64,000 nt of DNA from Octopus vulgaris (taxonomy: Eukaryota): positions 21,080,001 to 21,144,000 of the forward strand of contig OX597830.1 in the NCBI GenBank assembly GCA_951406725.2, given 5' to 3'. Below, piece by piece: positions 25,776 to 60,300 of the stretch. The notes beneath the pieces are model-generated. The model had not been told where the DNA came from. It worked only from the letters and a program-made list of their open reading frames with translations, and did not search any database. How positions within the stretch are numbered: the stretch's first letter is position 1; each line of letters begins with the position of its first letter. The translations under genes and the position numbers were made by a program.

Positions 25776-25930
25776 TAGGGAGAGTTTACGAAAAAAAACA
25801 AAAGACGAAGACAGGTGGTGTACAAAACAAACAGATGTATTAGTATAACACTCGGGAATAGAAAAAGTCTTTTACGTTTCGAGCCTACGCTCTTCTACAG
25901 AAAGGGACACAGAAAAAACAAGGAGAGAAA
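25776..25930 (-). mobile_element. Family G short non-coding element next to (TA)n with a degenerate hammerhead (copies at 58562-58718, 59876-60058; fragment at 15596-15650)
   Basis: Near-identical ~155-bp units AGGGAGAGTTTACG...GGAGAGAAAA. The antisense strand reads cttt-CTGTAGA-a-gagc-gtag-gctc-GAAA-cGTA-aaag. Confidence 0.7.
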
Positions 25931-26878
25931 AAAAACCACCGTGGCCGACCAGGTTATCAGATGTTGCTACACATCGCTGGTCACAATGTGCTTCACATTG
26001 TTTTAGCCTTCAAATGACGCCACCTCACTGGCTAAGCGAGCAGGCCTACAGAAGAAAGAGTGAGAGAAAGTTGCGGCGAAAGAGTACAGCAGTGATCGCC
26101 AACACCCAGTCGGGGAATCGAAACCGCGATCCTACAACCGCAAGTCCGTTGCCCTAACCACTGGGCCATTGCGCTTCGATATATATATCTTTAAGCTTTC
26201 TTTTCGGTTTGTGGGGGGGGGGGATTAAAATTGAATGTGATTAAGAAATGGTCCATCACTGGAATGGTGCCAGAACCAACATTAAAACCTGACCATTTGT
26301 CTCAGCACAAGAAGAATTCTTGCATCACTGCTGTGTGTCTTGGTTATGTCCAATAAAGTTGTTAATATATGGTGTGGTGGTGGTGGTGGTGGTGGTGGTG
26401 GTAGTGGTAGTGGTAGTGGTAATGGTGGTGGTAGTAGTTGTAGTAGTGGCAGCTGATGGAATGGTTGGGCAGGCAGGCTGATAGTGTCTGAGTGGTACTT
26501 ATAATTGTTAGTTGGTCAAGCAGTGTGTGTGTGTGTGTAACCTGAAGTAGTTTTGTTGGTCAGAGTGTGTGACCAACAAACTGCATCTGGTGAGGCCCGA
26601 AGTTGTTAACTGGTCAATAAGTATGAATGAGACTCGAGGTGGTTTCTTAGCCAAACTGTGAGTGAGGCCTGAAGTGGTTTGTAGGTGAGTATGAGTGAAT
26701 CTTGTGGTAGTTGGTTGGTTGGTTGGTCAATGAATTATGAGTCAGACCTGTGGTAGTTTTGTTAATCAAAAGTGTGAGTGAAGCTAAATATAGTTAATTG
26801 GTCAAGAAATGTAAGACAGAAGATAAGATAATTTATTGACCGAGGAATATCAGTGAGACTTGGGATGGAAGATATAAT

Positions 26879-27291
26879 GAGAGAAAATAGGTAAGTCTCT
26901 GACAATGTATGAAGTTTAATAAAATCTTGATATTTCAGGTGTAAGGGCCCAACTTCAGCAGCGAAAAACTGTCTGAAAAAGGTCCAATTATGTAGGTTCA
27001 ATTAACCCATTTAAATTCCCTAGCATTTATGTAACAGCAGCTCTTCAAATGTAGGTGTAATCAACATTCCATGCGTTGGTGTAAGCAAAAATGATTACAC
27101 CAACATTTTGAGATTGACCTCTGTTGTTACATAAATTCTAGGGAATTTGAATGGGTCAACGGAACCCACATATTTGGATTTTTCTCAGACTGTTCTTTGC
27201 TTCTGAAGTTGAGCCTTTGCACTTGAAATTTAAAGGTTTTATTAAACTTCACGCATTGTCAGAAACTTTCTGTTTTCTCTCTTTTTTTACC
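26879..27291. repeat. Long imperfect inverted repeat (foldback), ~185-bp arms
   Basis: The arms are reverse complements, roughly 80% identical by eye. This is mirrored in ORFs 26762-27001(-) and 27151-27375(+), which give similar peptides. Confidence 0.9.
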
Positions 27292-28119
27292 TTCTTTGAT
27301 ATTACAATGCTTCAAGCAAACTACAATGCTCTCATTTCTCTAGAGTTGAAATGGTTAATTGACCTAGGAGTGTGAGTGACACTTGAGATGGTTAATTGGT
27401 CAAGGAGTGTGAGTGAGGCCTGACATACTTAACTGGTCAAGTGAGGTGGCCATGTCAAAAGAGGCTCTATAGTGAACACACCCGAAAAGACTGAAGACAG
27501 AGACTTTCTTTCTCAACCAAGCCTTCAATGACAATTCTAAGTTCCATTCAGAAAGTGAAAGTAAAAGTAGAGAGGGAGGTGGTAAATTTGTGAAAAGTCA
27601 AATGGTGTGTGAATGAAGTGAGAAGAGTACAACTGAATTGAGTTGCTCTACGCATGTGTCTGAAAGCTGAAAATCACGGAATGGTGAACCCTTGCCGTGG
27701 CACTCCTGGCGAGTGAGGTGACTCAGAATCTGTGGGATATACATGTCCACTCTGCCAGATGGTTGCTCTTAGGAAGGGCATTTGGCCTTAAGAACCATGC
27801 CAAAACAGACGCTGAAGTCTGGTGTAGTCTTCTGCCTGGCCAACTCCTGTCAAACCATCTCATCCATGCCAGCATGGAATGCAGATGTTAAACAATGATG
27901 ATAATGATGATCACACACACACACACACACACACACATATAATCAATTCAAATAAACAAATAAAATTAACGGACAACAATAGGATGTGCACAAGAGAGGG
28001 TTTGATGTTTTGAGCAGAGCTCTTTGTCGGAAAGGAGAAAGGTAAAAGTCCAAAGAATGAAAAGAGATCACCAACAGCACGTGTGTAGTTATATATATAT
28101 ATGTGTGTGTATATATATA

Positions 28120-28670
28120 TAGGGTTATTCAAAAAGAATGAACCGATTTCATTACGCAATATTTTAATAAGGAAAAATAAAAGAAAACTCCAGCTAAGTC
28201 ACAAGTATTTACTCACAATAAACTTTTATTTCCTGTCTTACAAATGTTCAATGTGGCCACCACCTGCAGCATGGGCAACATCAATGTGATAAGAGAATTC
28301 CTCCCAGACGCGTATCAGCATATCACGATCCACTGAGTACTTCTTTCGCTGTCTGGTTGAATGCTTTATCGAAGTTTTTCCATTTCCCTTCTATGTCAAT
28401 ATCTTCTGGAATCACCTCAAGCAATGCAAATTTATTCTTTAGTTCCATAATGAACTTGCTTTTGATATGCTGATATGCGTCTGGGATGAATTCTCTTATC
28501 ACGTTGATTTTGCCTGTCCTGCAGGTGGCGGCCACATTGAACACTTAGTAAGACAGGAACTAAAAGTTGATTGTGAGTAAATACTTGTGACTTAGCTGGA
28601 GTTTTATATTGCTTTTCCTTATTAAAATATTGTGTAATGAAACCAGTTCATTCTTTTTGAATAACCTCAT
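28120..28670. mobile_element. Palindromic Tc1/mariner-derived MITE with ~205-bp inverted arms and a 139-bp LINE-derived spacer
   Basis: Arms 28120-28324 and 28464-28670 are reverse complements, beginning (TA)..GGTTATTCAAAAAGAATGAAC. Each arm encodes a transposase C-terminus (DMLIRVWEEFSYHIDVAHAAGGGHIEHL*). TA flanks. Confidence 0.85.
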
Positions 28671-59006: not shown

Positions 59007-59094
59007 AGTTTACAACAGCTGTTTCAGTAGCATTTTATTCAATGCAGTCGTAAAAGATTGCATCTTGATATACAATCCACCATCATCAGATAAA
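59007..59094 (-). ncRNA. Minimal type I hammerhead ribozyme motif with long stem II insertion
   Basis: Minus strand: tttat-CTGATGA-t-ggtgg..(44 nt)..ctact-GAAA-cagctg-TT-gtaaa, with a palindromic stem III. Degenerate paralog at 61975-62055 (+). Confidence 0.6.
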
Positions 59095-59225
59095 ACTTTA
59101 AACAGGTAAGATTTTAAACATTGACCTGGACATAGCCAATGTTTGCTGGGATAGTGATGTACTAAGTTTTACATTTGAATTAGAAGGTGTGGTTTCAAAC
59201 CACAGCTTCTTAAAAGAAAATAAAC

Positions 59226-59481
59226 GGGCATATGGCATAGTGGTTAAGTGCACGGGCTGGTAGCCCCAAGATTCCAAGTTCAATTCCAGGCAGTGACCTG
59301 AATAATAATAATAATAATAATAATAATGATGATAATGATAATAATAACATTGAAAAATACCTTAGGAATGAGAACCCAGGTTCAAAATTTTCCCCAAGAC
59401 ACCTGATGAAGGCTGGAGGGTATATCAGCTGAAACGTTGTGTTAACAACAAACAAGATGTGGACAAATATCCATCAAATGT
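59226..59481 (+). mobile_element. tRNA-headed SINE-like element (family F) with (AAT)n spacer and hammerhead-bearing tail
   Basis: A-box TGGCATAGTGG 59233-59243, B-box AGTTCAATTCC 59277-59287, (AAT)n, then gacac-CTGATGA-a-ggctg..cagct-GAAA-cgtt-gtgtt. The 3' part recurs at 39508-39590. Confidence 0.7.
59398..59443 (+). ncRNA. Minimal type I hammerhead ribozyme motif
   Basis: Stem I gacac/gtgtt, CUGAUGA core, stem II ggctg/cagct, GAAA, palindromic ACGU stem III, predicted GUU cleavage after 59438. Confidence 0.65.
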
Positions 59482-59709
59482 AGGGCTGATTTGTTTGACT
59501 AAAACCCCTTCAAAGTGATGCTAGAGCCTGGCCACTATCCGATATCTGAATCAAGTAAAAGAAGATAAAAAGAAGACATGTAGATAGATAGAAAGAGAGA
59601 TAGATTGACAGGCACAACATGAAGCCAGGAATTGAACTCACGACTTTAGGATTGTGAACTGAACACCCCAACCACTATGCCACATGCCTTCTCTAGATTA
59701 ACACACATA

Positions 59710-60300
59710 CGCAAAGAGTGGCTGTGTGGTAAGTAGCTTGCTTACCAACCACATGGCTCAGGGTTCAGTCCCACTGTGTGGCACCTTAGGTAAGTGTCTT
59801 CTACTATAGCCCTTGTGAGTAGATTTTGTAGAGAGAAACTGAAAGAAGCCCATCATATATATATATATATATATATAGGGAGAGTTTACGAAAAAAACAA
59901 AAGACGAAGACAGGTGGGGTTCAAAACAAACAGATGTATTAGTATAACGCTCAGTAATAGAAAAAGTCTTTTACGTTTCGAGCCTACGCTCTTCTTTAGA
60001 AAGGGACACAGAAAAAAGCAAGGAGAGAAAACAAATGTGTGTAGTGGCTAACGATGGCATATATATATATATATATATATATATATATATATATGTCTGT
60101 GTGTGTTTATTTCCCTACAATCACTTGACAACCGATGCTGGTGTGTTTACGTCCCCGTAACATTAGCAGTTTCAGCAAAATTGACTGATAGAATAAGTAC
60201 TAGGCTTACAAAGAGTAAGTCCTGGGGGTCGATTTGTTCGACCAAAAGGCAGTGCTCCAGCATGGCCGCAGTCAAATGCCTGAAACAGATGAAAGAATAA
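59710..60300 (+). mobile_element. SINE family A interrupted in its internal (TA)n by a family G element
   Basis: Head 59710-59855, G insert 59876-60058, tail 60100-60300. Confidence 0.85.

Follow-up and report, generated by a model that had tools for sequence, protein, structure and literature searches.

Hammerhead-like motifs in an Octopus vulgaris genomic window as probable truncated ends of Penelope-like elements, the commonest family carrying an altered core

Seven of the twelve hammerhead-like sites listed for the stretch of Octopus vulgaris DNA analyzed here (64,000 nucleotides, hereafter the window) belong to three repeat families, A, B and C, which sequence comparison traces to protein-coding Penelope-like elements (PLEs). 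We consider it probable that these sites are cut-down PLE terminal repeats of the three coding families, and that the hammerhead of the commonest one, A, which has U at position 6 (U6), is still a slow ribozyme assisted by dimerisation or by protein. Families A and B appear to be Neptune-type elements with a (TA)n end, present for the most part as 5'-truncated copies, and C appears to be Poseidon-like, with a tRNA-like head and no TA targeting. The Neptune-type label, in preference to Nematis, is a putative one assigned from motifs. Three more of the twelve sites belong to old decayed families, D and E, to which no parent was traced. An earlier note on this DNA had read the motifs as a retrozyme-like PLE satellite system; its observation was confirmed in part and its interpretation is partly supported.

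The described letters are present at all twelve sites. Family A is represented by a Neptune-type PLE 3' end (pLTR), 5'-truncated, at 25778..25935 on the minus strand, with a (TA)n end and a hammerhead (25869-25905) that has U6 and belongs to the A7 subfamily; by a plus-strand copy within a (TA)n run (58565..58716, hammerhead 58590-58627), whose C6 and G12 change were likely gained after insertion; and by a minus-strand copy flanked by (TA)n on both sides (59878..60059), whose hammerhead (59968-60005) has changes of its own at G5 and position 6. An old divergent relative with canonical A6 and without a TA end lies at 44477..44600 (minus strand, hammerhead 44521-44557) and forms a long branch in the family A tree, at 66% to its nearest member. 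The minus-strand segment 15598..15680, with TA at its end, is a stub from the 3' side of an old subfamily of A, without the hammerhead. Family B provides, at 51011..51206 (plus strand), the 3' end of a Neptune-type PLE that is sister to A, with a canonical core at 51086-51120 and (TA)n runs on either side, and a decayed minus-strand copy at 27945..28089, whose motif (28000-28035) shares C4 with the U4C subfamily and also has CpG-type changes. The motifs at 44521 and 51086 keep the core and have decayed stems, which are intact in their families.

Family C is present on the plus strand at 59226..59482 as a Poseidon-like PLE terminal repeat, with a tRNA-like head, an (AAT)n linker and a canonical minimal hammerhead (59398-59443), not targeted to TA, and as a 3' stub corresponding to the second half of the hammerhead (39508..39590, plus strand). 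The old repeat D carries a long-loop type I hammerhead (59007-59094) in its minus-strand copy at 58995..59181 and a decayed, shortened one (61975-62055) in its plus-strand copy at 61889..62060. Family E is a head-to-head inverted insertion at 53850..54112, a 192-bp palindrome (90%) with the hammerhead (53910-53948) on the inverted arm and (TA)n ending the main arm. Another old repeat family, at 28955..29230 (minus strand), has a hairpin and GAAA, and a possible decayed hammerhead of a further family lies at 15545..15585 (minus strand). Several of these sites had been called degenerate versions. This suits the decayed copies of B and D; it does not suit 25869, 58590 and 59968, where decay is not the whole explanation, family A having U at position 6 as its norm, and it fails at the family level for 29005, where both CUGANGA and UH are missing from the majority sequence of 15 copies. 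The window was also said to hold PLE RT and GIY-YIG remnants. An RT remnant with a YRDD motif is indeed found (11435-11963, minus strand), and a GIY-YIG remnant was not found in the window either by tblastn with several endonuclease queries or by a profile built from 60 of 120 homologues. The RT remnant belongs to a different PLE family, in which the long copies have a long-loop hammerhead of their own, and was therefore ruled out as the parent of family A.

Elsewhere in the genome, longer copies of A, B and C run into RT/GIY-YIG coding sequence, and the term non-autonomous thus does not hold for them. In loci L060 and L103-L122, the family A hammerhead lies about 850 bp behind a gene encoding RT, a CX4CxxC motif and GIY-YIG, and in L030, GIY-YIG coding sequence about 840 bp upstream ties the subfamily of 25778..25935 to a coding element. 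Eleven insertions have the family A hammerhead at both ends, as pLTRs flanking the RT-EN gene, with an open frame of 1064-1079 aa in seven. A Pfam search with trimmed family A element ORFs gave RVT_1 (7e-08) and a weak GIY-YIG match, and was informative for two of the three; neither RT nor endonuclease was matched when two element ORFs were searched whole, and nine window ORFs were uninformative. For family B, L294 encodes a protein 69% identical, in a single ORF with RT and, at its C terminus, GIY-YIG. A CX2-5CxxC linker precedes the endonuclease in A and B, the hammerhead lies downstream of the coding sequence in B and C, and PLE C-terminal coding sequence lies upstream of family C in L136 and L339. 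The tRNA-like head is present in 18 of 28 family C loci; ARAGORN calls on these heads were inconsistent. No coding parent was found within the 1.5 kb flanks of 15 loci, either for family D or for the 29005 family. The link to an autonomous PLE was thus established for A, B and C, and not for D or E, nor was a parent traced for the 15545 site.

The association with (TA)n follows the same division. (TA)3 lies within 45 bases in 88 of 105 3'-complete family A matches, against a 12% background, and (TA)n ends were seen by eye, uncounted, in family B; families C and D have no TA link. The proposal of PLE termini targeting (TA)n consequently stands for A and B and falls for C and D. As a description of the twelve sites, "in or near (TA)n" is too broad, with (TA)4 within 200 bases downstream in just five of them and a window background of 24%.

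The core boxes CUGANGA and GAAA...UH are found in families C and D and in the CUG form of B, and the hammerheads studied here have the extra base between 9 and 10.1, the G10.1-C11.1 pair and a palindromic stem III. Family A (at A6) and the main family B subfamily (at U4) depart from the canonical core. Among 16,332 exact family A matches genome-wide, A6 occurs in 180. T6 was present in 96 of the 100 matches listed first, whereas the control families B and C had A6 in 96 and 98 of 100, respectively, also among the matches listed. Thirty loci chosen by protein had T6 in all 30 hammerheads; of thirty chosen by 3' flank alone, 19 reach the hammerhead, with T6 in 18 and A6 in none. U6 is kept across successive family A subfamilies and in young intact elements. 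The family A tree is ladder-like, with most A6 copies placed singly within U6 subfamilies; many of its forks are weak (22 of 135 starred), and it is no proof that U6 arose once. Comparison of the subfamily majorities shows variation in 27 of 85 flank columns versus 2 of 34 hammerhead columns (Fisher p = 0.002), the latter two being N7 and H17, both free positions. Family B is now largely of the U4C form, with 8,262 C4 copies against 3,482 CUG copies, and its youngest subfamily adds a stem I mismatch, a combination that looks like decay.

Young insertions each contain two near-identical end copies. In family A, an upstream copy and a downstream copy are 1.6 sites apart when they share an insertion and 9.0 when they do not, and the upstream copy is nearest to the partner in its own insertion in seven of seven cases; young intact family A elements thus still yield longer-than-unit copies from one template. 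Four contig sets cover most of the L103 element, although ends, strand and circles are not readable from such assembled contigs. In families A and B, the 3' end is fixed in (TA)n and the 5' truncation is variable, and the family A junction carries a short AT-alternating tract that matches the (TA)n target. As the source of short copies, a constant transcription start around -90 found no support: 5' ends range from -90 to -10, and upstream copies start from -266 to -1969.

Starting from what is observed, namely the gene link, a 3' end that is fixed and a 5' truncation that varies, the occurrence of U6 in intact young elements and the paired end copies, we propose that the endonuclease of the element nicks (TA)n and that reverse transcription would begin about 100 bases behind the hammerhead, at the short AU-alternating tract able to pair with the target. 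It would mostly halt within 250 bases, giving the short copies of the window, and would sometimes go round one RNA beyond a single unit. Templates would mostly stay uncut at the hammerhead, with rare cleavage possibly serving circle formation or precursor trimming; such rare cleavage could explain why the remainder of the core stays fixed. A fuller version, which we advance tentatively, is that of an abundant, still young PLE lineage of about 20 million years, with CUGUNGA under hammerhead-specific constraint and more than one unit copied per RNA, whose active U6 hammerhead would be rescued by dimerisation or by the protein of the element and whose cleavage would feed a circular template.

One would wonder whether such short motifs arise by chance in low-complexity DNA. 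The 29005 family, devoid of the core, and the 15545 site, with its one 80% relative, could be counted in favor of this, but for ten of the twelve sites chance is refuted, and as a general explanation it can be practically dismissed. With one extra base permitted after A9, a type I descriptor matched the window with a perfect core at 59398 and 59007 (2 observed; mean 0.01, maximum 1 in 200 local dinucleotide shuffles) and had zero matches without the extra base; a minimal descriptor allowing one core mismatch matched at 59398, 59968 and 25869 (3 observed; mean 0.02, maximum 1 in 200 such shuffles). The excess over shuffled controls sought by the earlier note is therefore clear. Families A, B and C have thousands of exact genomic copies, against 0 matches for a reversed control, and the majorities of A, B, C and D each keep stem I and stem II pairing with differing sequences, in agreement with the claim of different stems around a retained core. 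An Rfam scan of the window gave no hammerhead family among the best 150 of 286 matches listed, which were microsatellite-driven miRNA matches only, and minimum-energy folds of five window copies lacked the full hammerhead fold, as expected for minimal decayed motifs, a result that weighs neither way. The alleged high density was not borne out: the same descriptors gave 6 and 12 matches in 400 kb of arbitrary stretches, that is 15 and 30 per Mb (type I and minimal, respectively) versus 31 and 47 per Mb in the window, an ordinary density for this genome, about twofold at most. We also regard as improbable the model of independent non-autonomous retrozyme-like elements, processed by the hammerhead and mobilized in trans, which is largely refuted for A and B. 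Most copies are indeed about 150-250 bp long with 5' ends bunched at -90 to -30, the family C head could permit transcription of the short repeat on its own, and short head-to-tail pairs exist (L002, L011). However, A, B and C are continuous with coding elements, short and coding family A copies carry the same subfamily diagnostics, and copy ends are unrelated to the cleavage site. Moreover, no tandem array with a hammerhead in each unit was found among the window's sites, where copies are single or inverted and end about 90 bases past the cleavage site, which does not correspond to a satellite system.

A more serious alternative, quite possible in our opinion though not the one that we favor, retains the same elements and supposes that the U6 hammerhead is catalytically dead. 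It would be kept as a protein-binding or folding signal beside the reverse-transcription start, and template jumping, back along one and the same RNA, would yield the longer-than-unit copies in place of a circle made by the ribozyme. Every U-turn single mutant was low in activity in a pairwise mutational scan (PMC9901934), and A6C is reported to cut the cleavage rate strongly in Mg2+ (PMC7151607, PMC3088659); from these data, U6 is predicted to slow self-cutting and the U6 hammerhead to be poorly active. Loop II of family A is as invariant as the core, and a protein-binding role could thus account for the conservation. A cleavage-dead hammerhead would also agree with the parallel U4C switch of family B, with the absence of any pile-up of 5' ends at the cleavage site (family A 0/93 matches, family B 1/60), with the reported in vitro insertion of PAc, the Poseidon of Anolis, independently of hammerhead cleavage (PMC11167929), and with Naiads, described as proliferating without canonical hammerheads (PMC8557442). 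Against it, no further single-stranded core base has changed across three to four subfamilies while N7 and H17 did; for precisely this pair of columns to be the variable ones, the probability is 1/561, rising to 0.037 when seven positions are taken as free, and H17 is G in just 1 of 75 copies.

A parallel can be drawn with published systems. Minimal type I hammerheads of this kind are already described by Cervera and de la Pena (2014, PMC4209133) in metazoan PLE pLTRs, and ours share with them the extra base A9/G10.1, the G10.1-C11.1 pair, the palindromic 15.2-16.2, a short stem I, presence in both pLTRs and a majority of single motifs from truncated elements; the core variant presented there is U3-A8, and the family-wide U6 or C4 of octopus is not known to be among the variants in that account. 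Like the Neptune-type EN+ PLEs of Craig et al. 2021 (PMC8557442), the present elements combine RT, a CX2-5CxxC linker and GIY-YIG at the C terminus with partial tandem structure and a (TA)n bias, and they differ by a long C/CA-rich 3' UTR, which measures 0.85 kb in A and 2.9 kb in a single copy of B, and by the altered core. PAc (Frangieh et al. 2024, PMC11167929) has in common with family A, as proposed here, an internal reverse-transcription start behind the hammerhead and copies that span it uncut, whereas its core is canonical and its start site is AC-rich and non-homologous to the target. Animal non-LTR retrozymes (PMC7229834, 10.64898/2026.07.22.740005) likewise have a type I hammerhead in a short repeat and a link to PLEs, but are presented as non-coding tandem repeats with a hammerhead per unit; the window copies represent ends of coding elements, standing alone or inverted, and A, B and C are neither devoid of coding capacity nor independent of a coding element. 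Natural A6C (phage Bcep176) and U4C (viroid) change the same U-turn positions and are reported as single isolates (PMC3088659, PMC7151607), while in octopus U6 and C4 have each become fixed in lineages that number thousands of copies.

Circle formation was proposed as the reason why PLEs retain hammerheads (PMC4209133), and yet in vitro cleavage was dispensable (PMC11167929). The octopus genome brings together an intact young element, a core variant that is fixed, natural A6 revertants and a sister family with the canonical core, and the commonest family, still spreading with U6, offers a natural test of the role of the ribozyme in these elements. If U6 is active, the known hammerhead core is widened; if it is inactive, longer-than-unit copying needs no ribozyme. 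In addition, standard descriptors miss the U6 and U4C families, and hammerhead counts in such genomes are therefore too low.

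The hammerhead-like letters described in the earlier note for 12 sites are present at every one of them. No match in the window came from a descriptor that lacks an additional base after A9. Once this base was allowed, there were two strict and three one-mismatch minimal matches, where 200 local dinucleotide shuffles gave means of 0.01 and 0.02. When applied to 40 arbitrary stretches of 10 kb from the same genome (2.8 Gb in 227 contigs, with the window on contig C17), the same descriptors gave 6 and 12 matches for shuffle means of 0.19 and 0.17 (58 shuffles). On these counts the motifs are real, but the high density claimed for the window was not borne out, since it lies within about twofold of what is usual in this genome. 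The window DNA is also rich in microsatellites, and contains tandem arrays at 13677-14059 (95 bp), 37496-37869 (33 bp), 24675-25129 (231 bp) and 39717-40087 (185 bp).

Self-comparison of the window and genome searches grouped the sites into family A (25869-25905, 58590-58627 and 59968-60005, with an older relative at 44521-44557), B (51086-51120 and 28000-28035), C (59398-59443), D (59007-59094 and 61975-62055) and E (53910-53948, which sits in a 192-bp palindrome). For the site at 29005-29080, the hammerhead core is absent from the majority sequence of 15 copies of its family, and the site at 15545-15585 is at most a possible decayed hammerhead of another family.

Family A copies have a variable 5' end and a common fixed 3' end about 90 bases beyond the hammerhead, and at locus L060 this end sits behind an RT and GIY-YIG gene. 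A protein search gave more than 100 copies of equal score among the 150 scored. From these, 20 loci were taken, mostly chosen for long frames; 19 contain the hammerhead, and in 11 a unit of 4.4-4.6 kb carries it at each end. In seven of these double-ended insertions, the frame that opens at the first ATG runs for 1064-1079 residues; of the other four, one has its stop at 968, two are ended early and one lacks the start motif. The protein matches RVT_1 (7e-08) and, weakly, GIY-YIG, and contains a CX4CxxC linker; its homologues have the same Pfam domains. It would fit Neptune or Nematis as described in PMC8557442. A single locus, L030, joins the window's own A subfamily to coding sequence; two other long copies do not reach it. 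The proposed linkage to (TA)n holds for family A, with (TA)3 within 45 bases of 88 of the 105 3'-complete matches (duplicates counted) versus a 12% background. The system is one already known, namely the hammerhead-bearing ends of Penelope-like elements (PLE). Retrozyme criteria were drawn from PMC7229834 and 10.64898/2026.07.22.740005.

What is new is that successful lineages carry a fixed U6 (and C4) core. If any base is allowed at positions 6 and 7, family A has 16,332 exact matches, of which only 180 have A6. Two samples not selected on the core agree: T6 is found in all 30 hammerheads of the protein-picked loci and in 18 of the 19 hammerheads of 30 flank-picked loci, 11 of which have no recognisable hammerhead. 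A wider set gave T6 in 66 of 75 copies and A6 in five, two of these coming from loci chosen for A6. Of the first 100 copies listed for each family, 96 in B and 98 in C keep A6. In family B, C4 is observed in 8,262 copies versus 3,482 with CUG; in a sample of 23 unpicked B copies it occurs in 11. After oversampled sets had been thinned, a tree was built from 138 of 174 copies with positions 6-7 masked. It has the form of a ladder, with weak support at many forks; N7 shifts between subfamilies and U6 is constant. Most A6 copies stand singly among U6 copies of equal N7, the pattern that point changes at a later date would give. That A6 is ancestral rests on family B, the site at 44521, the general consensus and three basal copies with A6. 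For one old U6 subfamily, the median JC distance to its own majority is 0.075 (14 copies), or very approximately 20 million years by the scale given in PMC13282606.

When the majorities of three or four clusters (comprising 47 or 58 of the 75 copies) are compared, differences occur in 27 of 85 flank columns versus 2 of 34 hammerhead columns (p = 0.002), the flank profile being built from core-picked copies and the hammerhead found by fuzzy match. The two are N7 and H17, the positions left free in a working hammerhead; loop II is also invariant. Residual, assisted cleavage seems to us about as probable as a dead ribozyme that is retained for its role as a signal. PMC4209133 describes these minimal hammerheads and their weak activity as dimers, attributes solo copies to truncated elements and proposes circles; PMC11167929 shows that initiation is internal, that cleavage is assisted by protein and that insertion can proceed without it; and PMC9901934, PMC7151607 and PMC3088659 indicate that U-turn changes give low activity, that A6C is rescued by Mn2+ and that U4C is tolerated in a viroid. 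A literature search, covering mostly papers outside subscription, found no report of a natural U6 hammerhead or of octopus PLE hammerheads, and such variants may be among the many motifs listed in the supplements of PMC4209133 and PMC8557442.

All 11 double-ended A insertions have a short tract of alternating A and T at the end of the upstream repeat, at the position corresponding to the junction of the downstream repeat with (TA)n. The start of the upstream repeat varies from -266 to -1969 (ten measured, one cut by the locus edge). In seven insertions with a shared length of 900 bases or more, the repeat copies show differences at 1.6 of 957 columns when they belong to one insertion and at 9.0 when they belong to different ones; nine variants are found in both copies of one insertion and nowhere else. 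The data point to one RNA that would have been copied longer than unit length, via a circle or a jump, though local gene conversion may produce such likeness too. Most RNA templates would have been uncut at the hammerhead, as suggested by 5' ends that do not pile up at the cleavage site (counts of 0 among 93 A matches and 1 among 60 B matches, a few double and cross-family matches included). Separately, L109 (G000:C2:77213000-77220500) combines a young upstream repeat with a downstream repeat of an older subfamily, a possible recombinant or template switch.

Families A and B have the hammerhead layout and 3' motifs in common. Nine extended family B loci include two clear coding cases: L294, where 2.9 kb separate the end from a preceding open RT-GIY-YIG frame that shares 69% identity with the frame of A, and L298, where the end follows a 58% remnant. 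The youngest B subfamily (L263, L282, L291, L294) carries U4C and a stem I mismatch, and L294 has a 2.9-kb CA-rich 3' UTR. Family C counts 3,760 exact copies in the genome; 28 distinct loci comprise 18 with a tRNA-like head, 17 with an inverted partner and 6 with a TA run (versus 15% background). An endonuclease C-terminus, presumably Poseidon-like, is encoded upstream of the head at L136 and L339. The family C repeat (window 59226-59482; L124-L137, L310-L339), often inserted as inverted pairs, has A- and B-box-like motifs in its tRNA-like segment ahead of the hammerhead, a possible Pol III promoter inside a coding PLE.

The PLE RT remnant noticed earlier was confirmed at 11435-11963 (-); no GIY-YIG remnant, also claimed, was found in the window. 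This RT remnant belongs to a further PLE family with its own long-loop hammerhead. That second young family (L043-L056) has a YRDD motif, frames of up to 833 aa and a canonical core, and Pfam gave no RT or endonuclease match for it.

Non-repetitive open frames at 60758-61117 (-) and 49803-50276 (+) may be host exons, the latter having no match in a Pfam scan. At 41072-41149, two CUGAAGA...GAAA motifs lie on opposite strands, with unconvincing stems and no relatives among the loci taken from the genome. Further distinct type I hammerhead families with a palindromic stem III occur at L044:2188-2239, L057:4228-4555, L060:765-850 and L195.
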